Assembly: GCA_034667725.1 (NCBI GenBank)
Contig: JAXDQS010000001.1
Location: 1 to 64,000, forward strand
Length of the DNA stretch: 64,000 bases
Direction: 5' to 3'
Origin: Thermoplasmata archaeon
GTDB taxonomy: Archaea > Thermoplasmatota > E2 > JACPAO01 > JAHFTW01
The notes below the pieces were generated by a model, which saw nothing but the letters and a program-made list of their open reading frames with translations, had not been told where the DNA came from and made no database searches. Within the stretch, counting starts at the first letter, position 1, and each line of letters begins with the position of its first letter. The position numbers were made by a program, and so were the translations under genes. This document shows positions 30,568 to 49,285 of this stretch, piece by piece.

Positions 30568-30576
30568 GGGACCTCC

Positions 30577-32153: not shown

Positions 32154-32988
32154 GCGCATCGTCGTCCTCGGCGCCACCGGCCAGCTCGGCACCGACGTCG
32201 TCCAGGCCGCCCGCGGGCGCGGCCTGACGGTCGTTGGGCTCGCCACCGCGGGCGCCGACGTGACCCGGCCGGAGAGCCTCGCCGCGGCGTTCGCGGCGCA
32301 CAAGCCGACCCTGGTCGTCAACTGCGCCGCGTTCCACCAGGTGGACAAGTGCGAGGACGACCCGGCGCAGGCGTTCGCGGTGAACGCCGTCGGCGCGCTC
32401 CACGCCGCCCGCGCCGCCAAGGCGGCGGGCGCGCGGACGGTGTACGTCAGCACCGACTACGTGTTCGACGGCCGCAAGCCCGTGGGCAGCGCATACGCCC
32501 CCGAGGACGCGCCCGGCCCGCTCAACGTCTACGGCGCCAGCAAGCTCGCCGGCGAGCAGCTGACCCGGCAAGCCGACCCGGCGGCCCTCGTGGTCCGGGT
32601 CGCCAGCCTGTTCGGCAAGGCCGGCAGCCGCGGCAAGGGCGGCAACTTCGTCGAGAACATCTTGCGGAAAGCCAAGGCAGGCGAGCCCGTCAGCGTCGTG
32701 GCCGACCAATGGATGAGCCCCACCTGGACCGTGGACGCCGCCGCCCAGATCCTGGACGCAGCGCTTGCCGGCAGGACGGGCACCATGCACGCCACCAGCG
32801 GCGGCTCCTGCTCCTGGTGGGCCTTCGCCCAGGAAGCGGTTCGCGCCGCCGGCCTGGAGGTCGTCGTCAAGCAGGGCTCGGTCAAGGACTGGCCCAGCAA
32901 GGCGCAACGGCCCGCGAACTCGGCGCTGGCCGGCGGGGACGACCAAGGCTGGGTCCGCGCGGTCAAGGCCTACGTGCGGTCCGGGTGA
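32137..32988 (+). CDS. rmlD: dTDP-4-dehydrorhamnose reductase
   Basis: GATGQLG, NCAAFHQVDKCE, STDYVFDG, NVYGASKLAGE, RPANSAL. Confidence 0.93.
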   Translation: MAPSSERIVVLGATGQLGTDVVQAARGRGLTVVGLATAGADVTRPESLAAAFAAHKPTLVVNCAAFHQVDKCEDDPAQAFAVNAVGALHAARAAKAAGARTVYVSTDYVFDGRKPVGSAYAPEDAPGPLNVYGASKLAGEQLTRQADPAALVVRVASLFGKAGSRGKGGNFVENILRKAKAGEPVSVVADQWMSPTWTVDAAAQILDAALAGRTGTMHATSGGSCSWWAFAQEAVRAAGLEVVVKQGSVKDWPSKAQRPANSALAGGDDQGWVRAVKAYVRSG

Positions 32989-33755
32989 CCACCGTGCTTG
33001 GAATCCCGCGGCAGCTCCTGTGGAACCTCGTGCTGCGCGAGGTCCGCCTGAGCCACCGCCGGATGGGGCTCGGCATCCTCTGGACGTTCATCAATCCCCT
33101 CGCGCTCATCCTGATCTATTTCCTGGCGTTCCGCTATGTCCTCGGCGTCCAGCCGACCCCGGAGTACGGCCTGTTCCTGACCTTGGGCATCCTGCACTGG
33201 GACCTGTTCAACCGCATCGTCACGCGAGCGCCGGAGTCCATTGTCGCCAACGGGAGCCTCATCGACAAGGTGGCGTTCCCGCGCATCGTCCTGCCGGCTT
33301 CGGTGGCCGTCTCCGAGCTGGTCCAGCACGGGTTCGTGCTGGCCGCGTTCGTGTTTTTCTACTACCCCTTGGGAGGCAAGCTGTGGGCGGGGGTCGCGCT
33401 GTACCCCGTCATCCTGCTGCTCGGCTGGATGTTCTGCCTGGGCCTGGCGATGCTGCTGGCGGCCCTCACGGTGTTCGCCCGCGACCTCATCCATGTCGTG
33501 GCCATCATGATGCGGGTCGGCTTCTTCCTGACGCCGGTCATCTACGACTTCACCCGGGTCGCGGAGCCTTGGCAGACCATCCTGGCCCTCAACCCGTTCG
33601 CGGGCTATCTGGAGGGCATCCGCAGCGTCCTCTACCGCCAGTCCTACCCGAGCCTTGCCACATGGGCCCTCATGGTCTTTGCCGCGGCCGCCACCCTCGC
33701 GCTCGGCAAGTGGGTCTTCGAACGCACCCAGCGCCGCTTCACGGAGTTCCTGTGA
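32985..33755 (+). CDS. wzm: Polysaccharide ABC exporter permease
   Basis: LGILWTFINPL, LIDKVAFPR, RDL..FFLTPVIY, LNP. Confidence 0.9.
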   Translation: MTTVLGIPRQLLWNLVLREVRLSHRRMGLGILWTFINPLALILIYFLAFRYVLGVQPTPEYGLFLTLGILHWDLFNRIVTRAPESIVANGSLIDKVAFPRIVLPASVAVSELVQHGFVLAAFVFFYYPLGGKLWAGVALYPVILLLGWMFCLGLAMLLAALTVFARDLIHVVAIMMRVGFFLTPVIYDFTRVAEPWQTILALNPFAGYLEGIRSVLYRQSYPSLATWALMVFAAAATLALGKWVFERTQRRFTEFL

Positions 33756-34465
33756 TGGAGCCGGTCATCGAGCTGGCGCACGTGAGCAAGCGCTTCGTCC
33801 GCCGCACCGAAGGCAGCCGGCCGTTCCGGGACTTGCTGCGACTGGGCCAGCCCGCCGAGGCCGACCGCTACCTCTGGGCCCTGCGGGACGTCAGCCTCCG
33901 CATCCACCAAGGCGAGGCCGTCGGCATCCTGGGCCGCAACGGCGCCGGCAAGAGCACCATGCTGAAGATCATCGCCGGCACCATGCAGCCGACCTCGGGC
34001 AAGGTCACGGTCCGTGGCACCATCGCGCCCCTCTTGCAGTTGGGCGCGGGCTTCACGCCGCAGCTTTCCGGCCGCGAGAACCTGTTCCTCAATGCCTCGT
34101 TCTACGGCCTGACCCGCCGCCAAGTGGTCGCGCTGTACGACGACATCGTGGAGTTCGCCGAGCTGCGCGACTTCATGGAGATGCCTCTGGGCCACTATTC
34201 AAGCGGGATGCAGATGCGCCTGGGCTTCGCCATCGCGATCCACCTCAAGGCCGACATTCTGCTGGTGGACGAGGCCTTGGCGGTCGGCGACCAGGCATTC
34301 CAGCGCAAATGCCTGGAGAAGGTGCGCGAGCGCCGGCAGGACGGCTGCACTTTGGTGCTGGTGTCCCATTCGCCCGAGACCATCGCGCAGTTCTGCGAGC
34401 GCAGCGTCGTCGTCGAGGGCGGCCTGGTCGTGCCGGGCAAGGCGGGCGGGCCCCTTGGCGACTGA
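33755..34465 (+). CDS. wzt: Polysaccharide ABC exporter ATPase, no C-terminal carbohydrate-binding domain
   Basis: WALRDVS, GRNGAGKST, LSGREN, YSSGMQMRLGF, LLVDE, VSH; 236 aa. Confidence 0.92.
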   Translation: MEPVIELAHVSKRFVRRTEGSRPFRDLLRLGQPAEADRYLWALRDVSLRIHQGEAVGILGRNGAGKSTMLKIIAGTMQPTSGKVTVRGTIAPLLQLGAGFTPQLSGRENLFLNASFYGLTRRQVVALYDDIVEFAELRDFMEMPLGHYSSGMQMRLGFAIAIHLKADILLVDEALAVGDQAFQRKCLEKVRERRQDGCTLVLVSHSPETIAQFCERSVVVEGGLVVPGKAGGPLGD

Positions 34466-35549
34466 AGCCCGCGCCGAGCCCCGCAATTTTGGCTTGGACG
34501 TGCTGCGCTGCTTCGCGATCGGCGCAGTCCTCGTCTCTCACCTCGGCACCCACTTTTTTCAGCCCTTCCACCCCGGCTTGCATCCGTTTCTGGTCGGCGC
34601 CTCCGTCGTCGGGGTCGAGGCGTTCTTTGTCCTGAGCGGCTTCTTGATCGGCGGCATCCTGCTGCGGCAGTTCGCGCCCGGCCGCCCCGCGTCGTTGCCG
34701 CAGGCCCGCGACTTCTGGGTCCGACGCTGGTTCCGGACCCTGCCGAACTACTATCTGTTCGTCGCGGTCAACGCCATCGTCTTCTGGACGGGCCTGACCC
34801 CCTACCCCATGCGGCCAGAATATCTGCTGTTCCTGCAGAACCTTTGGACGTTCCCGCCGGGGCCGTTCGGCGAGTCCTGGTCCCTGTCCGTGGAGGAGTT
34901 CTTCTACCTCCTGTTGCCGCTGTTGATCCTGCTGGCCTGCTGGCTCGTGCGGGCCCGCCAGGCCGCGCTGCTCGCTGCCGCCTTCGCCCTCATGGCGGTC
35001 CCGACCGTCGCACGGCTTGCGCTTGCAGCGGCCGGGACGGAGCCGCAGCCTTGGAACGAGGGCACGCGCTCGGTCGTCCTGCTGCGCCTGGACGCCCTCG
35101 GCTACGGCGTGCTGGGCGCCATGGCCGCCGCCTGGCGGCCCGCCCTATGGAACGCCCACTGCGGTGCGAGAGCCGTCGTCGGCGTGGCGCTGGCGGCGGT
35201 CGGGGTCTGGCTCTGCGTGCGACTGTTCTTCGGCCTGGACGCCCCGCTTGCCTACCTCCTGAGCCTTCCGCTCGTCTCGGCCGGCATCCTGCTCACGCTT
35301 CCCTGGCTGGAGGCGATCCGCCCCTGGGGCCGGACGTCACGGGCGGCGGTGACGGCGACGAGCAAGTATGCCTACTCGCTGTATCTCTGCCATACGCCTC
35401 TGGCCTACTTGGTGCTGGCGACCATGGGCGCGGGTCCGCTGCAAAGCCTGGTCTGGTTGGGGGCCGCCTACGCGGTGGCCGCGCTGGTGTTCCACGGCTT
35501 CGAGCGACCGACGACGGCGCTGCGCGAGCGGTTTGCCAAGCGTGCCTAA
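34455..35549 (+). CDS. Acyltransferase 3 family membrane O-acyltransferase
   Basis: GLDVLR, GVEAFFVLSGFLI, RRWFRTLP, SWSLSVEEFFY, YSLYLCH. Confidence 0.92.
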   Translation: MATEARAEPRNFGLDVLRCFAIGAVLVSHLGTHFFQPFHPGLHPFLVGASVVGVEAFFVLSGFLIGGILLRQFAPGRPASLPQARDFWVRRWFRTLPNYYLFVAVNAIVFWTGLTPYPMRPEYLLFLQNLWTFPPGPFGESWSLSVEEFFYLLLPLLILLACWLVRARQAALLAAAFALMAVPTVARLALAAAGTEPQPWNEGTRSVVLLRLDALGYGVLGAMAAAWRPALWNAHCGARAVVGVALAAVGVWLCVRLFFGLDAPLAYLLSLPLVSAGILLTLPWLEAIRPWGRTSRAAVTATSKYAYSLYLCHTPLAYLVLATMGAGPLQSLVWLGAAYAVAALVFHGFERPTTALRERFAKRA

Positions 35550-37138
35550 CGGCGCCACCGCGGCAACCGGAGCGCCGCCTCCAGGTCGCCGAGCAGGCTG
35601 CCGTCGCCATAGCCCGGCGACGACTGGGCGGCCCGCAGGTGGCGCAAGGCCTTGCGGCGCTTGCCGAGCGCCAGCCACGCCTGGCCGAGGGCGTGGTGGG
35701 TCCGCGCCAAGGTCACCGGCTCCACCGCCATCGCCTGCGGCGGCGCCAGCACTTGCTGGAGCGCCTGGATGGCCTGCTGGGGCCGGCCAAGCCGGAGGTC
35801 CAGCCAGCCGGCGTGGAACAGCGCCCAAGGGAGAAGCTGCTGGGCCTCCGCGGTGAAGAACACGTCGTGGCCCACAAGGGCAGACTGGACGGCGGCCGCG
35901 GCATGGAAGCCGCGGCAGGCGCGCTCTTGGTCGCCGTCGGCGTTCAGGGCCAGCATGGCGTCGTGGTACAGCAGGTTCCCGATGCAGTAAGGCAAGTGGC
36001 GCCCCCAATCGGAGAACGACGTGGCCAGGCGTGCCCGGCGTTGCGCCTCCGCCGGCTCGCAGGCGCCCGGCCCGTGGACCGCCTCTGCGGCGGCCTTGGC
36101 CTCGCGCAGGGCGGCGCGGGTGGCGTCGTGGCGGCCGGCGTGGCCGTGCTCGCCGGCCAGGCGGGTGGCGACGCCCAGGCGCAGGCGGTCAGGAGTCTTG
36201 TCCTCGGCCAGGAAGCGTTCCAGGTACGACAGGTATTCCGGCCCGTGCCCGCCGAGCCGGGGCGTCGCGAACGGCTTGCGGCTGGCGAACGCGATGAGAC
36301 GGTCGTTGCGAGGCAAGACCACGACGTGCGCGAAGCCGGCGCGCCGCAACAGGCCGGCGAGGCTGTCGGCCCCGAACAGCAGGACATGGTAACCGGGCGA
36401 GAGGTTCGGCACCAGGGTGGCCAGGTCCGAGCCAGAATCGGCCACTTGGGCGTTGGGCGTCGTGAGCACCAGCAGCCCGTCGGGCGCCAGGTAGTCTCCG
36501 AGCAGCCGGGCCAGGTCGACCGGGGTGGAAACGTGCTCGATGACCTCGGAGCAGAACACGAAGTCGAACGTGCGGCCATGGAGCGCGGGCACGTCCTGGA
36601 CGTAGGCGTGGTGGATGTCGAGCCCAAGCCGCGCACGCCCTTCGCGGCCGAAGTAGCCTGGCTCGCAGCCGACGACCGCCGTGCCCCAGAGCCGGCGGGC
36701 CGCGTCCAAGGCCAAGCCGTAGCCGCAACCGACCTCCAGCATGGAGCGGAACGGCCGGGCCGCACGGGCCGTGGCGACCAGGTCCACCATGAAGCTGATC
36801 CCGGCGCCCCATTCGACGTAATGCTGCAGGCCGCTCTCCTGCGCGAAGTAGTCCGAGGCCGCTTCGGCGCCTTGGTCGTAGGCGGGCAGCCGGAACGGAT
36901 GGAAGTAGACGCTGCCGCACGGGCAGGCGTAGAGGTCGAGGCGGCCTTGGTCGAGCACGGAGGCGACCGACAGGACCTGGGGCTTTGGCGTGGCGTCGCC
37001 GCACGCCGGGCAGCCTCCGGCAGGCTTCGGGGCCTTGCTTCGAGCCCAGCGCAGCCCGAGCGTCTCGGGCCGCATCCCCACGGAGGACTGCTCCGCCTGC
37101 ACGCCGTCCGGACCCCAGGCCAGCATAAGGCTGCTCAC
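35546..37138 (-). CDS. Class I SAM-dependent methyltransferase with N-terminal Cys motif and TPR-like C-terminus
   Basis: CPAC..CPCG, LEVGCGYG, FDFVFCSEVIEHV, LTTPN; GTGA overlap with upstream gene. Confidence 0.82.
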   Translation of the reverse strand: MSSLMLAWGPDGVQAEQSSVGMRPETLGLRWARSKAPKPAGGCPACGDATPKPQVLSVASVLDQGRLDLYACPCGSVYFHPFRLPAYDQGAEAASDYFAQESGLQHYVEWGAGISFMVDLVATARAARPFRSMLEVGCGYGLALDAARRLWGTAVVGCEPGYFGREGRARLGLDIHHAYVQDVPALHGRTFDFVFCSEVIEHVSTPVDLARLLGDYLAPDGLLVLTTPNAQVADSGSDLATLVPNLSPGYHVLLFGADSLAGLLRRAGFAHVVVLPRNDRLIAFASRKPFATPRLGGHGPEYLSYLERFLAEDKTPDRLRLGVATRLAGEHGHAGRHDATRAALREAKAAAEAVHGPGACEPAEAQRRARLATSFSDWGRHLPYCIGNLLYHDAMLALNADGDQERACRGFHAAAAVQSALVGHDVFFTAEAQQLLPWALFHAGWLDLRLGRPQQAIQALQQVLAPPQAMAVEPVTLARTHHALGQAWLALGKRRKALRHLRAAQSSPGYGDGSLLGDLEAALRLPRWRR

Positions 37139-38886
37139 TTCAGGCGGGGCAGCATCGGCTCCGACAGGAACCATGCGAGGGCGGGGTTCGCGTACGGGTC
37201 CGCCGCCGGCACCAACGAGCGGTCTGCGCGTGCAGCCTCGTGGAACAGGCCGCCATCGAAGGGGCGCGGCTGGCCCGGGCGGACCGCCTTTGCGCACGGC
37301 GTGAACATGGCGTGCTGGCCAGCTTGGCGGGCCCGCAGGCAGAAGACCGCAAGCATCTCGTCCAGGTCGGCGCTGGCAGGGGTGCCTTGCGCAGCCAGCG
37401 CCGTCGCGGGAATGGCCACAAGGTCGGGCGCGACCACGAGGTGGCGGCGATACCACGTCGTCGAGCCGAACAGGCTGAAGTGGTCCTGCATCCCCTCGAA
37501 CAGCGGCACCGCGGAGCCGGTCGGCCCGAGCACGCGGCCGGTCGCCACGATGTTGCCGTCCGGGTAGTGCACGGCGCCGGCCACGGCCGCGGCGCCTGGC
37601 CGGCGGGTCCAGCGCTCCAGCTCCTCCAGCCAGTCCGCATCCTGGACCAAGAGGTCGTCGGCAAGCAGGGCCACCATGCCGTCGGCCTGGGTGCGGGCTG
37701 CGTCCCACGGGACGGCCGAGGTCGGCTGGACGCGCGGGTCGCCCACGGCCAGCGCGGCCTGCCAGCGGGGGTCGCCGGGCGTGGCGGGGACCAACGCGCG
37801 CCACCGAGGGTGCCGGGTGGTCTTGCACAACGCACGCAGGCAGGCGGCCAGCCGGGCGGGCGGCGACGAACCCCAGACGACGACCAGGACGTTCGCGGGC
37901 GGAGTCGTCCAGGTGGAGCGGATGAGGCCGGGATGGTGGGCGTCCACCTTGGGCTCAGGAACCCCGAGGCGCTCCAAGTGGCGCCGGATGGCGGCCTCTT
38001 GGCTGAGGTAGACCTTTGGCTTGGCCGCGCCGGAGCTTGCCGTCGAGGCGGGCACCATGCGCCAATGGTACAGGACGCGGGGGACATGCGCGACCGCGTC
38101 GGTCCGCTCGGTGAGCCGGAACGCCAGGTCCCAGTCCTGCGACCCGTCGGTGGCGGGGTCGAAGCCGCCCAGGTCCCGCACCAGCCGCGCCCGGAAGACG
38201 GAGTGCATGAGATAGTTGGCGCACAGCAGCGTCTCGGGCGACCAGCCGGGCTTGAACCAGGGCTCCAGATGGCGGGTGCCGTCGGCAGAGACCTTGTCCT
38301 CGTCGACGTACACGATGTCCAGGCTGCGGTCCGCCACGATGCGTTCGGCGACCAGGAAAACGAAGTCGGGCGCGATGACGTCGTCGTGGTCGAGGATGGC
38401 CACGTAGTCGCCCGTCGCGAGGGCCAAGGCGGCGTTGGAGTTGCCCGAGATGCCGAGGTTCTCGGGCAGGAACACGGTCTTGATCCGCCGGTCTTCGGCG
38501 GCATGGCGGGCCATGATGTCGCGCAGGCGCTGGTCCTTGGAGCAGCCGTCGGCCAGGCAGAGTTCCCAATGCGGCGCGCTCTGGGCGCGGACGCTCTGGA
38601 TGGTCGCCTCGAGCACGCTCGGCGCGACGTTCCAGACTGGCGTGAGGAAGCTGATGCGGGGCGGGTCGTCCCAGGACGCGGCCACGCTGGCCTGACGGGC
38701 GAGCTCCGCGGCCGTGGGCTGCTTCTTGGCCAGCCACTCCTCGTAGCGGCGCCACGAAATCAAGAAACGGCGTTGGATCTCCAAGCCGATCCATCGTCTG
38801 GTCTTGCGCGCAAGAGGCCTCGGGCCCTCAGCGCGCAGGACACGCCAGGCTTGGCCTGCCAGGACGGGGAGGTCTCGGAGCCTCAA
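37135..38886 (-). CDS. GT2 glycosyltransferase (one intact and one degenerate GT2 domain)
   Basis: ISFLTPVWN, WELCLADG, GISGNSN, LDHDD, YVDED, GSQDWDL, LYHWR; TTGA overlap start. Confidence 0.88.
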   Translation of the reverse strand: MRLRDLPVLAGQAWRVLRAEGPRPLARKTRRWIGLEIQRRFLISWRRYEEWLAKKQPTAAELARQASVAASWDDPPRISFLTPVWNVAPSVLEATIQSVRAQSAPHWELCLADGCSKDQRLRDIMARHAAEDRRIKTVFLPENLGISGNSNAALALATGDYVAILDHDDVIAPDFVFLVAERIVADRSLDIVYVDEDKVSADGTRHLEPWFKPGWSPETLLCANYLMHSVFRARLVRDLGGFDPATDGSQDWDLAFRLTERTDAVAHVPRVLYHWRMVPASTASSGAAKPKVYLSQEAAIRRHLERLGVPEPKVDAHHPGLIRSTWTTPPANVLVVVWGSSPPARLAACLRALCKTTRHPRWRALVPATPGDPRWQAALAVGDPRVQPTSAVPWDAARTQADGMVALLADDLLVQDADWLEELERWTRRPGAAAVAGAVHYPDGNIVATGRVLGPTGSAVPLFEGMQDHFSLFGSTTWYRRHLVVAPDLVAIPATALAAQGTPASADLDEMLAVFCLRARQAGQHAMFTPCAKAVRPGQPRPFDGGLFHEAARADRSLVPAADPYANPALAWFLSEPMLPRLK

Positions 38887-39920
38887 ACGTCGCGGTCGAG
38901 CCGGCGCAAGGCCTTGGACGTTTGCCGCGCGGCCTGCAGGACGCCGCGGCCGGAGAGCAGCAGCCCGCGCCGCCGCAGCTCCTTGTCGGACACCGTTCGC
39001 CTTGCCTGGATCGCGGCCCGTTGCTGCAGCGCCGCCGGCATGGCCCCCAAGCCAGCCAGCGTGCCCCGCAGGCACGCAGCGGCGTGGCGGGGGCGGCCGC
39101 GCGCAAGCAGCGCGGCGGCCCGCGCGAGGTTGAGGCCAACCGACGCGGCCGCGGGCAGCACGGGGCGGGCGCGGTTCTTCAGCAAGGAGGCGAACCGGGT
39201 GCGGGTGCCCCAGTACAAGGTCGTCGCGGACTGCCTGCGGGTGGAGGCGCCGTAGCGGTGCCAGACGACGCTGCCAGGGGCGTGGAGGCAGCGGCCGCCT
39301 GCAAGCCAGACGCGGTGGCAGAAGTCGGCGTCCTCGGTGTAGAGGAAGAACGCAGGGTCGAAGCCGCCGTGGGCAAGGAAGGCGTCGCGCCGGAACAAGG
39401 CGGCCCCGCCGCAGACGGCGCCCGTCTCGCCCACGGATTCCCCTGCATGGGACGAGGCCGGCTCTCCAAGGCCGAGGTCGAGGCCGCCGCCCAAGGGCGA
39501 CAGGACGGCGCCGGCGTGGTGCAGCAACGGCATCGCAGCGGGCCGGTCACGCCACAGCAGGAGCCGAGAGCCCACGGCCGCCGCGTCGGGATGGAGGTCC
39601 GCCGCCTCCACCAACGTTCTCAGCCAGTCCCGCTCGGCCCGCGTGTCGTTGTTCAGCAGCACGACGCAAGGGGTCTGCACCATAGCGATGGCTTGGTTCA
39701 TCGCCTTGGCGAAGCCGAGGTTCTCGCCGCAGTCGTGCAGGCGGACCTTGGGGAACCGCGTGCGGACGAACGCCTGCGAGCCGTCGGTGGAGCCGTTGTC
39801 CCACACCAATACGTCGAACGGTTCGTGGATGTCCTGGGCAAGGACCGCGTCGAGGCACTCCTGCAGGTGGTGGCGGCCGTTCCAGTTCAGGACGATGACC
39901 GTGATGCGCGGCCCGGCCAT
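38883..39920 (-). CDS. GT2 glycosyltransferase (WbbL-like)
   Basis: IVLNWNG, DNGSTDGS, NLGFAKAMN, LLNNDT, GGFDPAFFLYTEDADF. Confidence 0.92.
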   Translation of the reverse strand: MAGPRITVIVLNWNGRHHLQECLDAVLAQDIHEPFDVLVWDNGSTDGSQAFVRTRFPKVRLHDCGENLGFAKAMNQAIAMVQTPCVVLLNNDTRAERDWLRTLVEAADLHPDAAAVGSRLLLWRDRPAAMPLLHHAGAVLSPLGGGLDLGLGEPASSHAGESVGETGAVCGGAALFRRDAFLAHGGFDPAFFLYTEDADFCHRVWLAGGRCLHAPGSVVWHRYGASTRRQSATTLYWGTRTRFASLLKNRARPVLPAAASVGLNLARAAALLARGRPRHAAACLRGTLAGLGAMPAALQQRAAIQARRTVSDKELRRRGLLLSGRGVLQAARQTSKALRRLDRDV

Positions 39921-39970
39921 GTCGTCGCTTGGGGACGGATGGCGGGCACTTAAGAGTGGGATGGTTGGCC

Positions 39971-40996
39971 ATGCCCGTGGCAGGGCCCGCGCCGAAGGTC
40001 TCCATCCTCATCGCCACCTACGACGGCGCCCGCTTCATCCCCGACCTGGCCGCTTCGCTGGCGCGGCAGGAGGGTCCGGCGTTCGAGGTCGTCGTGGTGG
40101 ACAACGCCTCGCGCGACGGCACCGCCGACGAGGTCGCGCGCCTCATGCCGACGGCCCGCGTCATCCGGTCCGACCGCAACCTCGGCTTCTGCGGCGGCAA
40201 CAACCTCGCGGCCCGCAACGCGGCGGGCGAGCTCCTGGTGCTGCTGAACCAGGACACCGAGGTCCGGCCGGGGTGGCTTGCGCATCTGGTGGCGGCGGTC
40301 GAGGCCGACCTGACCGTCGGCGTGGCCCAGTCGAAGGTGCTGCTGCACCGCGACCCGACCATCCTCAACTCCGTCGGCTGCGGCTTCAACTACCTGTTCT
40401 TCGGCTGGGCCGACCGCAACGGCCAGAAGGACGACGTCGAGGGGCCGCCGTTCGAGGTGCCGTACTGCCAAGGCGCGTCGCTCATCATCCGGCGGGCGCT
40501 GTACGAGGAGCTGGGCGGCTTCGACGAGCCGTTCTTCATGTACCACGACGACCTTGAGCTGGGCCTGAAGGCGCGGCTGGCGGGGAAGCGCTGCGTCTGC
40601 GTGCCCGACTCCGTGGTGCTGCACAAATACAACGAGGCGTCGCCGCCCCAGAAGCTGTACCTGCTGGAGCGCAACCGGCACCTCATGATGTGGAAATACT
40701 ATGGTCGCTGGACCCGGTTCCTGCTGTGGCCGCTCAACGCCCTGATGGACGGCGGCATCTTCCTGCTTGCCATCCCGCAGCAGTGGTGGCGGGAGAAGCT
40801 GCGGGCCCACCGCGACGCCCGCCGGATGCTCAAGGCCGCCCGCGGCCCCAGCCCGCACCATCCCTACACCGACGCCCAGCTGGTGCGGCTCTTGGGCTGC
40901 CGGTTCGAGGCGGGCGCCGTGGCCCCAAGCTTCAACCAGAAGGTCGCGCGGTTCCTGATGCGGGCCTACTATCCCATCGTCAAAGCCCTCGCTTAA
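39971..40996 (+). CDS. GT2 glycosyltransferase (WbbL-like)
   Basis: VDNASRDGT, NLGFCGGNN, LLNQDT, GGFDEPFFMYHDDLEL. Confidence 0.92.
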   Translation: MPVAGPAPKVSILIATYDGARFIPDLAASLARQEGPAFEVVVVDNASRDGTADEVARLMPTARVIRSDRNLGFCGGNNLAARNAAGELLVLLNQDTEVRPGWLAHLVAAVEADLTVGVAQSKVLLHRDPTILNSVGCGFNYLFFGWADRNGQKDDVEGPPFEVPYCQGASLIIRRALYEELGGFDEPFFMYHDDLELGLKARLAGKRCVCVPDSVVLHKYNEASPPQKLYLLERNRHLMMWKYYGRWTRFLLWPLNALMDGGIFLLAIPQQWWREKLRAHRDARRMLKAARGPSPHHPYTDAQLVRLLGCRFEAGAVAPSFNQKVARFLMRAYYPIVKALA

Positions 40997-42744
40997 TCAG
41001 GCTGGACGGTGAAGCCGCCGAAGGTGAACAGCGCCTTCCACACCAAGCGATGCAGGGCTTCGAACGGCGCCGCGACGCCGGGCAACGTCACGACGGGCTC
41101 GTGGTAGCGCGCCGTGGTGAGCTGGAGGAGCAGTTGCAAGCCGAACGCCAGCGCGACGCCGGCCACCACCAAGTTCCGCGACCAGTCCCGCGCCCACGCC
41201 AGCGACGCCAGGATCGCCAACGCCACCGCCAGCCCGCCGTACCGGAACAGCACCACGTGCTCGCTGGCATGGTTGTAGTCCGACCAGTAGCCGAGCAGCG
41301 CCTGGTGCAGCGCCCAGGTCGGGACGATGGCCAAGGGCAGCAGCGCCGCCACGCCGCCGGCCACCGCCCGCGCCGCCGGCCGCAGCGGCACGCCGGCGAA
41401 CAGGGCTTGGGCGGCGGGCGCGGCCAGCAGCGTCAGCAGCGGCCACAGGGTCGAGGCGTAGCGGATGTCGTAGCCGCCGCCGGGCTCCAGCAGGAACCGT
41501 CCCATGAACAGCACGAGGACGGCGGCGTAGGCCGCCGCGAGCAGCCGCCAGTCGCTGGGCAGCACGCGCCGCCAGGGGCGGTGGGCAAGCGCCGCGAACG
41601 CCAGCACCACGAACGGCGCCACCGACAGGAACGAGAACGCCGGGTCCACGTCGGACAAGCGGGTCCACACCAGGCTCTGCGCGATGGCCGACAAGCCGCC
41701 GGCCGGATCCGCCACCAAGGAATGCGAGAAGTAGCCGCCCTCCTCCAACGCCGCGAGGGACTGGACCGCGTACGCGCCGGCAGGAGGCGCTGTCGCGAAC
41801 ACCGGGAACTGCGGGCCCACCCCTTCCGCCCGCAACAGGTGCTGCTGCGCGACGAACGCGAGGAACCCGAGGCCGAAGCCGGCGAGGGCGGCGGCAGCGC
41901 GCGGCATCCAATGGCGGGGGGCTTGGCGCAGGCCGCGCAGGCCGACGACGCCGAGGCCGAAGGCCAGGAACAGGCCGAGCACCAGCTCGTTCCAGCAGGC
42001 CAAGCCCGCCACCCCGAAGGCCGCGAAGGTGCGCGCGACCGGGGTGCGGTGGCCGTCGCGGTAGAGCCAGGCCGCAAGGGTCAGCAGGAAGGTGGCGAGG
42101 GCGTGGTACTTGGCCGACAGCGCCCAGAACGCCATCGGGGTCGCGAACGCGTACGCCAGGACGAGGCCGAGCCGGACGTTGGCGGACACCCGGCCTTCCA
42201 GGAGGCGCCACAGCAGGGCGGCCGTCGCGGCGTGCGCGGCCAGCGACACCAGCTGGAGGGCCGCGAACTCCAGGAACGGCGAGCCCGGTGCGGGCTGCGG
42301 CCAAAGCATGGGCGTGGCCACGAACAGCAGCGGCACCGCGGGCAGCAGCCGGCCGGCCCGGCCGAGCAGGGACTGCTTTCGCTCCCACGCGGCCGCCACC
42401 ACCCACGGCACGATGCAGGCGAGCGCGATGGCGCCCTGGGTCCCAAGGGCTGCCGCCGCCAGGCGCAGGAGCAGAAGGGCGGGCACGGCGGCCACGCTCA
42501 ACATCGTCGAGGCGATGGGCGCCGCCGGCGGGTCGCCGGGATGCGGCACGACCCATTGGCCCACCACGGGGTCCGCCAGCACAGGCCCGTAGCCGGCCGG
42601 CAGGTCGTCGCGCAGCGCCAAGTGCCCTTCCATGACGCTGGTCAGGCTGGCGGCCTGGACGACCTCGTCGTCCATGAGGATGCCCGGCCGCCACAGCAGC
42701 AGCAGGGCGCACAGGACCAGGAGCCCGAGCCGGCGCGCCTGCAC
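40993..42744 (-). CDS. Polytopic membrane protein, possible GT-C-fold glycosyltransferase
   Basis: More than 10 hydrophobic segments; acidic DDE after the first TM; YAFATPMAFW, GGYDIRY loop motifs. Confidence 0.6.
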   Translation of the reverse strand: MQARRLGLLVLCALLLLWRPGILMDDEVVQAASLTSVMEGHLALRDDLPAGYGPVLADPVVGQWVVPHPGDPPAAPIASTMLSVAAVPALLLLRLAAAALGTQGAIALACIVPWVVAAAWERKQSLLGRAGRLLPAVPLLFVATPMLWPQPAPGSPFLEFAALQLVSLAAHAATAALLWRLLEGRVSANVRLGLVLAYAFATPMAFWALSAKYHALATFLLTLAAWLYRDGHRTPVARTFAAFGVAGLACWNELVLGLFLAFGLGVVGLRGLRQAPRHWMPRAAAALAGFGLGFLAFVAQQHLLRAEGVGPQFPVFATAPPAGAYAVQSLAALEEGGYFSHSLVADPAGGLSAIAQSLVWTRLSDVDPAFSFLSVAPFVVLAFAALAHRPWRRVLPSDWRLLAAAYAAVLVLFMGRFLLEPGGGYDIRYASTLWPLLTLLAAPAAQALFAGVPLRPAARAVAGGVAALLPLAIVPTWALHQALLGYWSDYNHASEHVVLFRYGGLAVALAILASLAWARDWSRNLVVAGVALAFGLQLLLQLTTARYHEPVVTLPGVAAPFEALHRLVWKALFTFGGFTVQPD

Positions 42745-42778: not shown

Positions 42779-43162
42779 TCAGCGGAACTCGCCGAAGTAG
42801 AGCACCGACTCGTCGGGGTCGTGCACCAAGGTCACGGTGCCCGGGCTGCTGCACACCACTTCGTCGCCGGCCTCGATCGGGCCAGCCGGGAGCACGCACG
42901 CCGCCGAGCCGCCCAGCCGGACCTCGGACCAGTCGAGCGGCCCGCCGGGGACCGAGACCACCTGGAGCCGGCCGCCGGGACCGTCCGGGTCCGGGAACGC
43001 CTGGAAGGTCGCCTTCTGCTCGGGGGCGTCCTGCTGGTCAGTGAACTCGTTGGTGAAGAACACCACGGCCACGCCGACGACGACCACGATGCCCACCATG
43101 AGGACGACGGCCACGTTGGCCGAGACCGCCTCCTGGTCGCCGCGGAACCGAGGGGACGCCAC
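42779..43162 (-). CDS. Type IV pilin (minor paralogue)
   Basis: RGDQEA|VSANVAVVLMVGIVV; AAC..AGDEVVC Cys pair shared with the neighbouring pilin. Confidence 0.85.
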   Translation of the reverse strand: MASPRFRGDQEAVSANVAVVLMVGIVVVVGVAVVFFTNEFTDQQDAPEQKATFQAFPDPDGPGGRLQVVSVPGGPLDWSEVRLGGSAACVLPAGPIEAGDEVVCSSPGTVTLVHDPDESVLYFGEFR

Positions 43163-43282: not shown

Positions 43283-43693
43283 TTAGAACTGCGCGGTGTA
43301 GATGAGGGTGTTCGTCGGGATGTAGCGGACGTAGAACGGGCCGTCGCCATCGGTGGCGCTGCAGACGATGACGTCGCCGGCATCCAGGGCGCCGGTCGGC
43401 TTGGTGCAGGCCGCGGTGCCGGAGGTGTTCTTGATCTCGACGTCGCCCCAGACGAGGCCGTTGTCAGGGGCGCCCTGGACGGCGATGACCGTCAAGGTGC
43501 CGCCAGCCAGGCTGGAGTCCGACTGCTTGTTGAACGTGATCGAGGGGCTCTGGTCCTCCTGGTTGCCCGCGAGGCGGGTGACGAGGACGAAGACGACCGC
43601 CGCGAGGACGACCGTGATGGCGACCATCAGGATGACGCCGATGACGGGCGACACGGCCTCGTCGTTGTTGCTGAACGCTTGGTTTGCCTTCAT
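43283..43693 (-). CDS. Archaeal type IV pilin (probable major pilin)
   Basis: NNDEA|VSPVIGVILMVAITVVLAAVV; GGAGG SD; TATATA near 43742-43747; NTS sequon. Confidence 0.93.
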   Translation of the reverse strand: MKANQAFSNNDEAVSPVIGVILMVAITVVLAAVVFVLVTRLAGNQEDQSPSITFNKQSDSSLAGGTLTVIAVQGAPDNGLVWGDVEIKNTSGTAACTKPTGALDAGDVIVCSATDGDGPFYVRYIPTNTLIYTAQF

Positions 43694-43894
43694 TGTGATT
43701 CCTCCCTGGCTTACAGGGCATTCGCGCTGAGTTTCACCCGCTATATAGCGCTTGCTGGATGATTTCGCGTGGAACTCTAGTTCTTCCAGAGGAATCCTCG
43801 GCTTTCGCTTCTCCAGGCGGCGTGCCCTCCTGTTACCCTCTTGCCGAAGCGCCGATGGAAAGCCTTCAAGCCCTGGCACGGAGGAGGGGGGCCT

Positions 43895-44689
43895 GTGACC
43901 AGCGCCGGCGAGGTGGAGCAGTTCGCCTACTGCGCCCACAACTGGCTCCTGGCCCGGCACGGCGTCGAGGGGAACCTGCCCGGCACCCAGCGCGGCATCG
44001 AGGAGCACCGGGCCGCCGGCGCCGCGTTGGCCTCCTCCCAGCGCGAGGAGCGCGACTTCCGCGCCGGCCTTGCCTGGTCGCTGCGCATCAGCCTGGTCGG
44101 CTTGTCCATCCTGCTGGTGGTCCTCGCCGTCGCCCTGTTGGAGAACTCCCTGGTGAGCCTTCTGGCCTTGGCGGTCGCCCTGCTGGTGCTGCTGGCCTCC
44201 AGCGCCTTGCTGACGGTCGCCCTTGCCAGCCAGGTCCGGGCCCGCCGCATCCAGCGCGCCGCCCACCTCGTGCCCGGCCAAGTGCTCCAGGACGACCTCG
44301 GCGCCCAAGCCCCCCTGCTCGAAGACCCGACGTGGGGCATCTCCGGCCGCCCCGACTACCTGCTGCAGACCCGCAGCGGCACCGTGCCCGTCGAGGTCAA
44401 GACCGGCCGCACGCCGGACGCGCCCTACCGCAGCCACGCCCTGCAGCTCGCCTGCTACCTCCGCCTGGTGGAGGCCACCTCCGGCCGCGCGCCGGAGTAC
44501 GGGTTCCTGAGCTACCCGGGCGGGACGTTCCGGGTCGAATGGGACGACGCCTTGCGCGAGGACCTGCGCCAGACGGTCGAGCGGCTCGCCGTCGCCCGCG
44601 CCAGCGGGGTCGCCGACCGCGACCACGACCAGCCCGGCCGGTGCCGCGGCTGCGCGCGCCGGGCCGCCTGCGACCAGCGGCTGGCTTGA
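43895..44689 (+). CDS. Solo Cas4-like PD-(D/E)XK nuclease with inserted two-TM hairpin
   Basis: SAGEVEQFAYC, GRPDY, VEVK, QLACY, CRGCARRAAC (four Fe-S-type Cys); two hydrophobic helices in the middle; GTG preceded by GGAGGAGG. Confidence 0.88.
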   Translation: MTSAGEVEQFAYCAHNWLLARHGVEGNLPGTQRGIEEHRAAGAALASSQREERDFRAGLAWSLRISLVGLSILLVVLAVALLENSLVSLLALAVALLVLLASSALLTVALASQVRARRIQRAAHLVPGQVLQDDLGAQAPLLEDPTWGISGRPDYLLQTRSGTVPVEVKTGRTPDAPYRSHALQLACYLRLVEATSGRAPEYGFLSYPGGTFRVEWDDALREDLRQTVERLAVARASGVADRDHDQPGRCRGCARRAACDQRLA

Positions 44690-44771: not shown

Positions 44772-45173
44772 ATGCGGTTCCTCACTGTCCAGGAAGTCTT
44801 GTGGATGCACGCGTTCCTGCTGCACCGGGACGGCGGCGAGCCTGGGATGCTCAACCTGGGCCTTCTGGACGCCGCCCTCGACCGCTGCCGGTTCGGCCCG
44901 TTCGCGCAGCCGCCCGACCTGGCCGCCCGCGCCGCCTTCCTGATGCGCGGCATCTGCCAGGACCACCCGTTCGTGGACGGCAACAAGCGCACCTCGGTGG
45001 AAGCCCTGGACACGTTCCTGCGCGAGAACGGGATGCCGCTGGTTTGGTCGCGCCCCGAGGCGGTCGCGTTCGCGCTCTCCGTCGCGTTGGGCATGGACAT
45101 CGACGGCACCACCGCCTGGATTCGCCGCCGGATACCAAACCTCCAAACGGTCGAACGAGGTGATGCCCCATGA
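44772..45173 (+). CDS. doc: Doc (death-on-curing) family Fic-domain toxin
   Basis: FLTVQEVLWMH, GLLDAALDR, HPFVDGNKRT; alternative ATG at 44745. Confidence 0.9.
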   Translation: MRFLTVQEVLWMHAFLLHRDGGEPGMLNLGLLDAALDRCRFGPFAQPPDLAARAAFLMRGICQDHPFVDGNKRTSVEALDTFLRENGMPLVWSRPEAVAFALSVALGMDIDGTTAWIRRRIPNLQTVERGDAP

Positions 45174-45380: not shown

Positions 45381-46409
45381 ATGCCCGCGGACTACCGCAA
45401 CGACGCCGTGCACCCCATGCTGTCGCGGGCCCGGCCGCTGTCCCAGACCACGCTCGGCAGCGACGGGCCCGGCAGGTCCTCCTACGGCGACTGCGCCATC
45501 CAGGAGTCCACCGGCGCGGGCGGCCTCACCGACTTCACCTTCGGGGGCAGCCAGGCCGGGGTCGCCTGGTCGGTCAACCCCTACGCCGGCTGCCTGCACG
45601 CCTGCAGCTACTGCTACGTGCCCGACACGCTCCATGCCGAGCGCCGCAACTGGGGCACCCGCGTCATCGTCAAGCGCGACCTTCCGACCCGCCTCGCGTT
45701 GGCGGTCGCGCGCAGCGCCAAGCTCACCTGCTACTTCTCCACCGCCACCGACCCGTACCAGAGCGTCGAGGCGGAGCACCAGATCACCCGCCGCTGCCTG
45801 GAGGTCCTCGTCCGCAAGGACTGGCCGGTCGAAATCCTGACCCGCAGCCCATTGGTGCTCCGGGACCTCGACCTCCTCCAGCAGTTGAGCATGGTGCGGG
45901 TCGGGTTCAGCATCCCCACGATGGACGACGGCCTGCGCCGCGTCCTGGAGCCCGCCGCCCCCGCCATCCCGGCCCGGCTGCGCGCGCTGCGGAAGCTGTC
46001 GGACCAAGGCATCCCGACGTTCGCCAACTACACGCCGGCCTGCCCGCCGACGACCCATGACGCGCCCGCGGTCGCCCGGACGTTCCTGGACGCCGGCGCC
46101 CAATGGGTCAACTCGACGCGCTGGAAGCGGCGCGCCACCACCATCGGCCCGCTGTGGGAGCGGCTGCGCGGCACGGAATGGGAGCACCTGCCCGCGTTCT
46201 TCGCCAGCAAGCCCCGCCAGAACGCCTGGCACGACGAGCTGGGCAAGGCGTTCCGCAAGCTCGGCCTGCCGCTCGGCACCTCGTTCTACAACCCGCCGTT
46301 CGAGTTCCTGCAAGCCCAGGACGTCGGCCCAAAGCAGGCGACCCTCCAGGAAATCCGCGTCCCGGTCCACGCCCACCCCCAGCCCCGCCGCCCGCGGCAG
46401 GCGGCCTGA
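45381..46409 (+). CDS. Radical SAM protein, spore photoproduct lyase-like (Rv2578c-like) family
   Basis: NPYAGCLHACSYCY, STATDPYQ, ILTRSPLVLRDLDLL, LEP.A..RL. Confidence 0.9.
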   Translation: MPADYRNDAVHPMLSRARPLSQTTLGSDGPGRSSYGDCAIQESTGAGGLTDFTFGGSQAGVAWSVNPYAGCLHACSYCYVPDTLHAERRNWGTRVIVKRDLPTRLALAVARSAKLTCYFSTATDPYQSVEAEHQITRRCLEVLVRKDWPVEILTRSPLVLRDLDLLQQLSMVRVGFSIPTMDDGLRRVLEPAAPAIPARLRALRKLSDQGIPTFANYTPACPPTTHDAPAVARTFLDAGAQWVNSTRWKRRATTIGPLWERLRGTEWEHLPAFFASKPRQNAWHDELGKAFRKLGLPLGTSFYNPPFEFLQAQDVGPKQATLQEIRVPVHAHPQPRRPRQAA

Positions 46410-47386: not shown

Positions 47387-49285
47387 GTGCCTGAGACCCT
47401 CGTGCCCGACACCTCCGTCCTCGTGGACGGCCGCATCACGGAGCTGGTGCTGTCGGGGGAGTTCCCGCGCGCGGACATCCGCGTGCCGCGCGCCGCGCTG
47501 GCGGAGCTGGAGGCGCAGGCCAACCGCGGCCTGGAGTCCGGGGTCGCCGGCCTCGACGAGCTGGCCGCCCTCCAGGAGATGGCCAAGGCCGGCCAATGCA
47601 CCATCGAGTTCGCGGGCGACCGCCCCCACGTCCGGGAGGTGATGGAGGCCCGCTCGGGCGCCATCGACGCCCGCATCCGCGAGCTGGCCGTCGAGGTGGA
47701 CGCCATCTTCGTCACCTCCGACCGCATCCAGGCGCACGCCGCCGCCGCGCAGGGCCTCCGCCACCACTACCTGCGGCCCCGCCACCGCCAGACCGACCTC
47801 ACCACGCTCAAGCTCTGGGAGTTCTTCGACCCGGAGACCATGAGCGTCCACCTCAAGTCGGAGTGCGTCCCGATGGTCAAGCGGGGCCAGCCGGGCGCCG
47901 TCCGCTACGAGCCGCACCGCCGCGGCGCCACCGCGATGCCGCACAAGGACCTGCGCGCCATCCAGAAGGAGTGCCTCGAGTTCGCGCGCCGCGACGACGA
48001 CTCGTTCATCGAGATGGAGAAGCACGGCTGCACCGTCATCCAGCTCGGCCCGATGCGCATCACCATGGCCCAGCCGCCGTTCGCCGACGGCCTGGAGCTC
48101 ACCGCCGTCCGCCCCATCACCAAGAAGTCGATCGAGCACTACAAGCTCGACCGCGAGCTGTTCGAGCGCATCGAAGGCCACAGCCGCGGCGTGTTCATCG
48201 CCGGCCCGCCCGGCTCCGGCAAGTCGACCTTCGCCGCCGCCGTCGCCGAGCACCTGCACGGCCTCGCCCGCGTCGTCAAGACCATGGAGCAGCCCCGCGA
48301 CCTGCAAGTGCCGCGCGAGGTCACCCAGTACGGCGCCTTGGACCGCGACATGAAGTGGACCGGCGACGTCATCCTCCTGGTCCGCCCCGACCACGTCCTC
48401 TACGACGAGGTGCGCACCACCGAGGACTTCCGCGTCTTTGCCGACATGCGCCTTGCCGGCGTCGGCCTCATCGGCGTCACCCACGCCAACCGCGCCATCG
48501 ACGCCGTGCAGCGCCTCATCGGCCGCGTCGAGCTTGGCATGATCCCCCAGATCGTGGACACCGTGCTGTTCGTCGAGGCCGGCAAGATCGCGCAGGTGCT
48601 GGAGCTGACCTTCACCGTCAAGGTGCCGTCCGGCATGACCGACGCCGACCTCGCCCGCCCCGTCGTCCTCGTCACCGACGTCCGCACCGCCCGCCCCGTG
48701 TTCGAGCTGTACACCTACGGCGAGCAGGTCGTCGTCATGCCGCTGGACCAGGAGATGCGCAAGGACCCGGCCAGCCAGCTCGCCGAACGGCAACTCAGCA
48801 CCATGCTCCGCAAGTACGTCCAAGGCCGCATGGAGGTCCAGGTGCGCGGCAACCGCGCCACCGTCATGGTGCCCGAGTCCGAGGTGCCCGGCCTCATCGG
48901 CAAGGGCGGCCGCAACGTCCAGATGCTGGAGAACAAGCTCGGCATCGGCCTCCAGATCCAGGCGCTGCCCGACCGCCCCACCGGACGCTGGGAGCGCAAG
49001 GACGCCAAGGACGACTACCAAGAGGAGATGGAGGCCGCCCGCGCGGCCGCCAAGGAGGACGACCAGCGGGGCGGCGTGCGCATCAAGCGCACCGGCACCA
49101 ATGTGTTCGTCCTCGTGGGCACGCCCGGCCTGTGGCGCATCGAGGTCGAGGGCGCCGTCGTCGGCGAGGGCATCGCCTCGAAGGACGGCAAGGTCCGCTT
49201 CAAGGCCAAGTCCGCCGAGGGCGAGGCCCTGGTCGAGGCCACCAAGCGCGGCTTCATCGTGTCGGCCGAGCGTCTGGAAGACTAG
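47387..49285 (+). CDS. PINA: PIN domain, P-loop ATPase and KH domain
   Basis: VPDTSVLVDG, ELEAQAN, TMSVHLK, GPPGSGKSTF, KTMEQPRDL, LLVRPD..YDEVR, IGKGGRNV. Confidence 0.92.
   Translation: MPETLVPDTSVLVDGRITELVLSGEFPRADIRVPRAALAELEAQANRGLESGVAGLDELAALQEMAKAGQCTIEFAGDRPHVREVMEARSGAIDARIRELAVEVDAIFVTSDRIQAHAAAAQGLRHHYLRPRHRQTDLTTLKLWEFFDPETMSVHLKSECVPMVKRGQPGAVRYEPHRRGATAMPHKDLRAIQKECLEFARRDDDSFIEMEKHGCTVIQLGPMRITMAQPPFADGLELTAVRPITKKSIEHYKLDRELFERIEGHSRGVFIAGPPGSGKSTFAAAVAEHLHGLARVVKTMEQPRDLQVPREVTQYGALDRDMKWTGDVILLVRPDHVLYDEVRTTEDFRVFADMRLAGVGLIGVTHANRAIDAVQRLIGRVELGMIPQIVDTVLFVEAGKIAQVLELTFTVKVPSGMTDADLARPVVLVTDVRTARPVFELYTYGEQVVVMPLDQEMRKDPASQLAERQLSTMLRKYVQGRMEVQVRGNRATVMVPESEVPGLIGKGGRNVQMLENKLGIGLQIQALPDRPTGRWERKDAKDDYQEEMEAARAAAKEDDQRGGVRIKRTGTNVFVLVGTPGLWRIEVEGAVVGEGIASKDGKVRFKAKSAEGEALVEATKRGFIVSAERLED

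Follow-up and report, generated by a model that had tools for sequence, protein, structure and literature searches.

A Cas4-family nuclease of Thermoplasmatota archaea with a predicted transmembrane hairpin inside its fold

The stretch of DNA analysed here, called the window throughout, is the first 64,000 nucleotides of contig JAXDQS010000001.1 from a Thermoplasmata archaeon (assembly GCA_034667725.1). It carries a gene for a 264-residue protein that resembles the Cas4 nucleases, a well-studied family of soluble enzymes, but whose sequence contains two long hydrophobic segments. An earlier note, made from the DNA sequence without database searches, had described a solo Cas4-like nuclease with a transmembrane (TM) hairpin placed between its iron–sulphur (Fe-S) ligands, anchored on the cytoplasmic side of the membrane, where it would act on DNA as it enters the cell. 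The locus raises the question of whether a Cas4 domain can be built around a membrane anchor and, if so, what such an enzyme would be for. We find that the protein is a Cas4-family member at the domain level, that a hairpin very probably embedded in the membrane interrupts its predicted fold, and that it belongs to a family present in most of the Thermoplasmatota genomes sampled. Its role is discussed with the alternatives below.

The gene and its Cas4 motifs

The features of the gene, which was called as an open reading frame (ORF) and translated, are the following; those of the hairpin and of the Fe-S site are predictions.

43895..44689, forward strand: nuclease gene, Cas4-family protein of 264 residues with a predicted membrane anchor; GTG start, TGA stop included
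43895..44029, forward strand: N-terminal module, residues 1–45, predicted to be cytoplasmic, with the putative first Fe-S ligand (Cys13) and a conserved His (His38)
43931–43933, forward strand: Cys13, in the AYC motif
44006–44008, forward strand: His38
44066..44140, forward strand: predicted TM helix 1, residues 58–82
44141..44152, forward strand: predicted outer hairpin loop, residues 83–86 (ENSL), placed from the alignment and the structure model
44153..44230, forward strand: predicted TM helix 2, residues 87–112
44267..44629, forward strand: RecB/Cas4 catalytic core, residues 125–245
44354–44356, forward strand: D154, in RPD
44393–44395 and 44399–44401, forward strand: E167 and K169, in EVK
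44444–44458, forward strand: Q184-x3-Y188 (QLACY)
44642..44671, forward strand: C-terminal Cys triad of the putative Fe-S site, C250-x2-C253-x5-C259 (C250-RG-C253-ARRAA-C259)

The GTG start lies 4 nt after GGAGGAGGGGGG (43880–43891), a Shine–Dalgarno-like stretch with a GGAGG run, and an identical protein is also called on an independent contig. In an alignment of 30 homologs, which is used for all statements on conservation, the N-termini coincide with this start at M[PT]SAGEVEQ. The shorter GTG start is therefore taken to be right, and an upstream TTG that was considered in its place is not needed.

All of the motifs listed in the earlier note (AYC, PD, EVK, QxxxY and CxxCxxxxxC) are present and conserved. 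Cys13, D154, the Q184-x3-Y188 pair and the C-terminal triad are invariant, E167, K169 and His38 are nearly so, and S3, A4, Y12, W17 and G23 of the N-terminal module are invariant together with Cys13. We take His38 to be the metal-binding His of Cas4 motif I. This assignment follows from its near-invariance and from a weak HMMER alignment in which the YC...W...RG..H segment of Pcal_0546 (PDB 4r5q) lines up with the module, both of which fit the motif-I His described for SSO0001 (PMC13621843).

Two Pfam families match the protein, PDDEXK_1 (PF12705; E = 2.3e-9, 38 bits against a gathering cut-off of 22) and Cas_Cas4 (PF01930; E = 1.6e-7, 32 bits against a cut-off of 22.7), and both matches are confined to residues 118–260, the span of the Pfam and NCBIfam alignments. 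The cas4 equivalog model TIGR00372 gives 50.2 bits, under its cut-off of 65, while PADLOC-DB 2.0 returns only domain-level matches, to its Cas4 and DruK nuclease models. Its fold, together with the motifs and the profile scores, places the protein in the Cas4 family at the domain level.

Predicted structure

The AlphaFold2 model, built with the 30 homologs, has a predicted local distance difference test score (pLDDT) of 91 and a predicted template modelling score of 0.85, and contains a long helical hairpin made of residues 28–83 and 86–122. The first 20 residues have a pLDDT of 95–96 and are therefore predicted to pack on the core. Foldseek puts Cas4, Dna2, AdnA, MGME1 and Exo5 at the top of its matches, with E = 4.7e-5 to 8d3q. 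Superposition by VIA-align on the Cas4 part of 7mi4_A gives Z = 19.9 with a root-mean-square deviation of 2.8 over 176 residues, spread over model positions 1 to 264; further Cas4 matches include 8d3l and 4ic1, and Z ranges from 19.9 to 13.5 over the Cas4 structures. According to the model, then, a complete Cas4 domain is interrupted by an insertion of ~85 residues. The hairpin alone matches only generic helical hairpins, including soluble ones such as those of ROP and the chemoreceptors. The first strand of the core begins ~10 residues after the end of TM helix 2, so that the active site is expected to lie close under the membrane and to reach membrane-proximal DNA only.

The hairpin and its topology

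Kyte–Doolittle means over 19 residues lie between 2.2 and 2.66 across residues 57–112 (nt 44066–44230), with maxima of 2.66 in TM helix 1 and 2.62 in TM helix 2, and each of the two hydrophobic segments, of ~25 residues, is nearly free of charged residues. Both segments fall within the long helices of the model, one in each arm. The hydropathy peaks and the modelled hairpin thus agree on an inserted TM pair between the first Cys and the remaining motifs, almost exactly where the earlier note had seen it (about 44070–44230).

The distribution of basic residues points to the orientation of the hairpin. Averaged over the 30 homologs, its 17-residue flanks hold 4.3 (N-side) and 4.1 (C-side) Lys and Arg residues, whereas the loop, ~4 residues long, holds 0.6. 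The positive-inside rule therefore predicts a cytoplasmic position for both ends and with them for the whole nuclease. This N-in/C-in topology is strongly supported as a prediction from the sequences, and a cytoplasmic placement fits the cytoplasmic assembly of Fe-S clusters. Since almost nothing of the protein would be exposed outside the cell, the hairpin is best regarded as an anchor rather than a sensor.

Helix number in the family

A word-indexed search found 121 near-full-length relatives, almost all of 257–297 residues and with 100% query coverage. The named ones among them come from metagenome-assembled genomes of the phylum Thermoplasmatota and are annotated as 'Cas4' or 'PD-(D/E)XK nuclease'. 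When 1.84 billion cluster representatives were searched exhaustively, 932 matches reached E <= 0.001, and the best 150 of these are nearly all membrane-bearing. The relatives fall into length classes: proteins of ~265 residues have two hydrophobic helices, those of ~325 residues have four and those of 480–600 residues have eight. There are also relatives of ~172 residues with a single TM helix at the start and without the N-terminal Cys.

A crude hydropathy measure served to count the inserted helices wherever the N-terminal Cys motif stands ahead of the first TM helix, which is the case in 177 proteins. Two helices were found in 125 proteins, four in 26 and eight in 11, making 162 of the 177. 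The other 15 gave other counts, which are explainable as miscounts. Nine that were scored with one helix are two-helix proteins in which an Arg or Glu drops the first helix below the threshold, five have a false extra peak in the hydrophobic core helix of the QxxxY motif, and in one no helix was detected. An even number of helices is what the Fe-S 'staple' argument of the earlier note demands: one N-terminal and three C-terminal Cys residues clamp one cluster, and both ends must accordingly be on the same side of the membrane. This parity is the strongest comparative support for the topological reasoning.

The architecture found is an even number of TM helices, with K/R-rich flanks, between the Cys/His module and the RecB core. 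Its recurrence in the 121 near-full-length relatives, and in most of the genomes sampled from the phylum, makes it more than a chance feature. The same-side termini of the earlier note are supported by the K+R pattern, by the even helix counts and by the way in which N-terminal module and C-terminal core make up one Cas4 domain; its further proposal, that the nuclease is tethered at the cytoplasmic face, is likewise well supported by the fold model, the K+R distribution and the helix parity. A model of a four-helix representative has four long helices at a pLDDT of 84. Pfam scans of the multi-helix inserts gave no known channel or transporter domain such as ComEC, but only weak, sub-threshold matches to domains of unknown function (DUF).

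Split genes

Within the Chloroflexota (Anaerolineales/Chloroflexia), and also in one archaeal family of low GC content that belongs to the same class as the window, two genes encode the protein, which is divided at the hairpin loop.

L034:9705–9941 and 9953–10462: split pair, Anaerolineales
L058:9696–9938 and 9941–10456: split pair, Anaerolineales/Chloroflexia
L094:289–555 and 559–1083: archaeal split pair, low-GC family of the window's class
L096:227–487 and 491–1021: archaeal split pair, same family

The relatives of ~172 residues noted above are halves: in the Chloroflexota an ORF of 78–83 residues directly precedes one of 169–172 residues. The short ORF holds RASEIG..LYC...W...G...H, with the first Cys and the conserved His, followed by TM helix 1, and the long ORF holds TM helix 2, the nuclease core and the CxxCx5C triad. 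The archaeal ORFs share one frame, with a single stop between them and an ATG immediately after it.

A complex of the split halves, predicted with a 4Fe-4S cluster included, reached an ipSAE of 0.64, against 0.00 for the best of three controls (58 of 80 solved complexes attain this mark, as do 2 of 110 mismatched pairs). Contact agreement among the three runs was at least 96%, and partner pLDDT was at least 75. In the modelled complex TM helix 1 contacts TM helix 2, and Cys15 of the N-terminal piece contacts residues 148–150, 155 and 159 of the C-terminal piece, beside its triad C156/C159/C165. Since Cas4 structures have been solved, part of the predicted binding may stem from the resemblance of the halves to them, and the result is to be read as consistency rather than as binding. 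In a protein so built the Fe-S cluster and active site would be assembled across a membrane anchor, and in the split forms from two polypeptides, which is structurally unusual for the Cas4 family.

Distribution in the phylum

Thermoplasmatota is an abundant phylum that includes the marine Group II archaea. With the family profile at E <= 1e-10, matches were found in 285 of the 401 Thermoplasmatota genomes sampled and in 182 of the 271 of high quality (one genome of the sample, G383, is unpublished and adds one count to the tallies only). Many GTDB families are at or near 100% (among them f1, 16/18; f4, 16/16; f5, 56/59; f21, 15/15; f29, 62/62), and a few are largely without the gene (f9, 2/48; f6, 0/4). 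The window's own genome, of 2.32 Mb and 90% complete, has one copy by a search with the family profile. A search of the same genome with PF01930 missed the nuclease gene itself and is therefore uninformative on paralogs.

A FastTree phylogeny of 149 nuclease cores is poorly resolved, with 12 of 146 branches starred. The architectures nevertheless cluster on it, requiring 40 label changes compared with 83 in shuffles. Several changes of helix number seem to be needed on this tree, from which the order of events is not readable. The gene is near-core in the phylum, mostly single-copy and vertically inherited.

CRISPR and defence context

The absence of a CRISPR array or other cas gene from the window, which the earlier note had remarked on, held up in a whole-genome k-mer scan, negative for CRISPR-like arrays in both window and genome, and in a PADLOC search, which found no cas or defence model among the ten neighbouring genes apart from weak Fic-domain matches for a Doc toxin. 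Cas1 (PF01867) was not found in the 90%-complete genome. The low equivalog score thus goes together with a context in which neither cas1 and cas2 nor an array was seen. No model of PADLOC-DB 2.0 specific to a known anti-phage system was matched together with partner genes nearby. The gene belongs neither with the cas genes nor to a defence island, and that the family is CRISPR-independent and nearly universal in Thermoplasmatota is strongly supported. The public label 'CRISPR-associated Cas4' on its members misleads CRISPR surveys.

The candidates raised by the k-mer scan proved to be tandem repeats of 75 bp without unique spacers. These non-coding repeats of 75–76 bp, in three to four units, occur outside the window at G000:C7:17790–18090 and G000:C3:8135–8400, in opposite orientations; their G+C content looks lower than that of the genome and, having no unique spacers, they are not a CRISPR array.

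Gene neighbourhood

Two archaeal type IV pilin genes lie upstream of the nuclease gene and are divergent from it.

42779–43162, reverse strand: type IV pilin gene (Pfam Pilin_N, 5.8e-4)
43283–43693, reverse strand: type IV pilin gene (Pfam Pilin_N, 9.3e-16)

TIGR02537 also matches. By a profile of the pilin N-terminus the genome has only six pilin-like ORFs, two of which are these. In the closest clade pilins are found within four genes of the nuclease in 14 of 20 loci, where they make up 28 of 134 near genes compared with 8 of 136 farther ones. Their arrangement varies, from divergent upstream to co-directional on both sides (L024), and in L009, L014, L016 and L018 PilC/PilB-type genes are directly downstream of the nuclease. 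Outside this clade a pilin is nearby in one of 17 loci of other GTDB families with the two-helix protein, a locus that belongs to the window's own taxonomic order; 26 loci from other archaeal clades and 21 from Chloroflexota have none. CDP-archaeol synthase (CarS), a lipid enzyme that has no plausible connection with pili or DNA, is nearly as persistent a neighbour, in 11 of the 20 closest-clade loci. It is doubtful that the pilin genes belong to one system with the nuclease.

Genes for the T2SSF (PilC-like) platform protein occur at four loci of the genome, one in the window (~18516–20563, forward strand) and three elsewhere (G000:C3:22543–23743, C3:107076–108558 and C7:24618–25724). The one in the window is ~23 kb upstream of the nuclease gene, and the adjacent pilins are therefore apart from their assembly genes here.

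The other clades (four-helix, eight-helix, marine, Chloroflexota) have different neighbours, mostly housekeeping genes: TIM with a class-V aminotransferase and a ribbon-helix-helix protein, ribosomal protein S2 with Dus, GlmS, D-aminoacyl-tRNA deacylase, or L7Ae. The split pair of Anaerolineales sits in a tight row of ORFs that overlap or nearly abut: genes for a DUF3467 protein and a translin-like protein (PF01997, 4.4e-7) come before it, and after it come nadK (NAD kinase), a gene for a B-box zinc-finger protein and one for a RecN-like SMC protein.

L045:1229–3479, L034:9042–10462 and L058:9059–10456: gene rows with the Anaerolineales split pair

Translin was not found in the window's own genome by a profile search.

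Other genes near the nuclease are recorded here in their own right. Directly after it is a Doc (death-on-curing, Fic-fold) toxin gene (44772–45173, forward strand; PF02661, 3.8e-11; TIGR01550 above its cut-off), and a 44-residue ORF is called after the Doc gene on related contigs (in the window, a small ORF to about 45304). Because it recurs in only three related loci, Doc is probably part of an inserted toxin–antitoxin pair. A radical SAM protein follows (45381–46409, forward strand; related to the PA0069 and Rv2578c families, 146 and 103 bits, far under the cut-offs). A 'pilin-Cas4-Doc-radical SAM module' was considered as a unit and rejected, given the few loci with Doc and the lack of a conserved radical SAM gene beside the homologs. 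Farther downstream (47387–49285, forward strand) is a 632-residue protein with a PIN domain, a PilT/T2SSE-like ATPase and a KH domain (NCBIfam PRK13764, 717 bits, above its cut-off), whose relatives include PINA, the Holliday-junction branch-migration ATPase (391 bits, under the cut-off of 800). A surface-glycan cluster lies upstream of the pilins (30001–42744), with two glycosyltransferases of family 2 (by Pfam, on the identical contig L001), an 11-TM protein of 583 residues without a family and, by eye, dTDP-sugar enzymes and ATP-binding cassette transporter genes. In one four-helix clade the gene directly upstream of the nuclease encodes a 667-residue protein that combines a lamin-tail and a PKD domain with two PLD-like (PLDc_2) domains (L048:2228–4231, forward strand; same position in L039, L049, L062, L066 and L078), which may be a surface phosphodiesterase or nuclease.

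Proposed role

The best explanation of these observations, which we hold about as firmly as we doubt it, is that the protein is an integral-membrane, cytoplasm-facing Cas4-family nuclease, with the PD-(D/E)XK/RecB fold and a four-Cys Fe-S cluster, that acts at the membrane. A TM hairpin with an outer loop of four residues would be inserted between the N-terminal module and the core, and these, both cytoplasmic, would come together again as a normal Cas4 domain no more than a few helical turns beneath the membrane. By analogy with characterised Cas4 proteins the enzyme would cut or resect DNA ends or single-stranded DNA (ssDNA) with Mn2+ or Mg2+, and the tether would restrict cleavage to DNA lying at the membrane's inner face, sparing the bulk of the chromosome.

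As to the substrate, DNA that crosses or contacts the membrane, whether incoming foreign, transforming or viral, is the likeliest candidate, although we would sooner question it than assert it. What confidence we have is divided evenly between the processing of imported DNA and an innate barrier, two roles that are not separable here. That the enzyme acts on DNA entering the cell, as the earlier note had suggested, is a possible inference. A more specific and, we think, unlikely version would make the protein a constitutive 'gate' nuclease of Thermoplasmatota, split in Chloroflexota, which cuts or resects any DNA that emerges through the membrane. It could then be an archaeal counterpart of the spatial self/non-self discrimination of SNIPE, described below, or the missing cytoplasmic step of archaeal DNA uptake, and in the window's lineage it might be physically coupled to type IV pili.

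Several points weigh against an enzyme dedicated to membrane-crossing DNA. A near-core, vertically inherited gene with housekeeping neighbours in most clades is unlike typical defence genes. When the clade neighbourhoods were compared, no conserved channel or partner protein was found beside the gene in archaea, and searches of the genome, which is 90% complete, yielded neither ComEC (PF03772) nor DprA. Although real, the adjacency of the pilins is lineage-restricted and indistinguishable from conserved synteny, and the persistence of CDP-archaeol synthase points to plain synteny. The topology is deduced from the positive-inside rule and Fe-S logic, and membrane insertion, cluster binding and nuclease activity are predictions for every member of the family.

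These same facts of distribution favour the alternative that survives best, in which the protein works at the membrane in the upkeep of the DNA of the cell itself, resecting or trimming ends, flaps or trapped DNA in repair, replication termination, segregation or division. We consider this a serious alternative, if not a likely one. It would readily explain a near-universal and mostly single-copy gene, housekeeping neighbours, and the operon-like row in Anaerolineales with a translin-like gene beside nadK and the RecN-like SMC gene. The nearest folds also include nucleases of repair and replication; AddB, Dna2, Exo5 and MGME1, all relatives, resect or trim ends or flaps. They do so in solution, however, and we know of no repair pathway that needs a membrane-embedded nuclease. 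The short outer loop and close tether would keep such an enzyme away from most of the nucleoid, and the adjacency of nadK and recN is common in bacteria and may mean nothing.

A second alternative is a pilus-coupled module for DNA entry, with the nuclease processing pilus-delivered DNA as in natural transformation. The neighbourhood of the closest clade speaks for it, with two of the six pilin-like ORFs of the genome on the upstream side of the gene, pilins close by in most loci and in several arrangements, flanking co-directional pilins in one locus and PilC/PilB-type genes directly downstream in four. The association is nearly confined to that clade, though; the genes are mostly divergent or convergent and hence form no operon, an unrelated lipid enzyme is a comparably persistent neighbour, and ComEC and DprA were not found. 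Both this module and, more generally, a functional link between nuclease and pilus appear improbable to us.

Less probable again is a reading in which the hairpin is a soluble coiled-coil stalk, or the substrate is RNA in a membrane-tethered decay resembling that by RNase Y or RNase E. The hairpin taken by itself does superpose on soluble hairpins, and a translin-like gene, of a family that binds RNA and ssDNA, is operonic with the Anaerolineales split form. A composition almost without charges over ~25-residue segments, with Kyte–Doolittle means above 2.2, is nevertheless unfit for a soluble coiled coil, and the characterised Cas4-family enzymes are all DNases (PMC12501428, PMC5704561). Finally, that the protein is a canonical Cas4 of CRISPR adaptation that has drifted from its cas operon is scarcely credible, for although its core matches the Pfam and PADLOC Cas4 models and its homologs are publicly annotated 'Cas4', it scores under the equivalog cut-off, its genome yielded neither Cas1 nor an array, the gene is near-universal in the phylum whatever the CRISPR status, and the best 150 relatives of the exhaustive search are almost all membrane-bearing.

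We therefore return to the proposal of a Cas4-family nuclease acting at the membrane. Because the family is nearly universal in its phylum, an unrecognised and probably important DNA transaction seems to take place at the archaeal membrane. Should the enzyme act on DNA that crosses the membrane, this would bear on how archaea without CRISPR handle incoming DNA, and on how archaeal DNA uptake is completed.

Comparison with known systems

Competence systems offer a likeness of idea only, that of a nuclease coupled to the membrane where DNA crosses it. The eight-helix relatives do resemble a polytopic membrane module fused to a nuclease, but neither ComEC nor the competence nucleases EndA and NucA have any relation in sequence or fold to the window protein. 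EndA and NucA, moreover, act outside the cytoplasmic membrane, whereas the nuclease domain of the window protein is predicted to be cytoplasmic.

With SNIPE, a membrane-bound nuclease that protects E. coli against phage (Saxton et al. 2026, PMC13190303), the likeness is one of proposed mechanism only. Experiments on SNIPE have shown that its nuclease domain, held at the membrane on the cytoplasmic side, cuts phage DNA while this is being injected; the tether keeps the nuclease off host DNA, and removal of the TM segment is toxic. SNIPE is, however, a bacterial accessory defence gene of unrelated fold, GIY-YIG with DUF4041, and has a single N-terminal TM segment. The window protein is near-core in archaea, its predicted hairpin lies inside the fold, and a defence role for it is only proposed. 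Neither DUF4041 nor GIY-YIG was found in it, the Pfam matches being PDDEXK_1 and Cas_Cas4 only.

The CRISPR Cas4 proteins (PF01930/TIGR00372; structures 7mi4, Cas4-Cas1; 8d3l, type I-C Cas4; 4ic1, SSO0001; 4r5q, Pcal_0546) are much closer. They have in common with the window protein the fold, over the range of Z given above, the RecB motifs D, ExK and QxxxY, the 1+3 Cys Fe-S pattern and the N-terminal YC...W...H module. They differ in lacking its predicted TM hairpin insertion, and the window gene differs from theirs in being without Cas1, Cas2 or CRISPR context, in scoring below the TIGR00372 cut-off and in being near-core rather than borne by a cas operon.

The Solo-Cas4 proteins (Hudaiberdiev et al. 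2017, PMC5704561; Rentz et al. 2025, PMC12501428) share with it the location outside cas loci and the four conserved Cys, and by analogy the window protein may be expected to have their metal-dependent DNase activity. The Solo-Cas4 of M. mazei, a soluble oligomer of ~318 kDa, has a [4Fe-4S] cluster bound and uses Mn2+ or Mg2+ to cleave DNA (PMC12501428). The Solo-Cas4 proteins described are soluble, whereas the window protein is a predicted integral membrane protein. The survey of 2017 has no mention of an insertion that is membrane-embedded or hydrophobic, its sole 'membrane' being in the name of an unrelated gene in a figure legend (PMC5704561), and in the open-access library searched, including PMC5704561, PMC4158269 and PMC13621843, there is no description of a Cas4 with inserted TM helices or of a split, membrane-anchored one. 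The membrane-embedded Cas4 family is thus apparently undescribed, and what is added here is its two-helix variant in the window's lineage, the pilin neighbourhood with its limits, the count of helix parity and the pattern of predicted contacts between the split halves.

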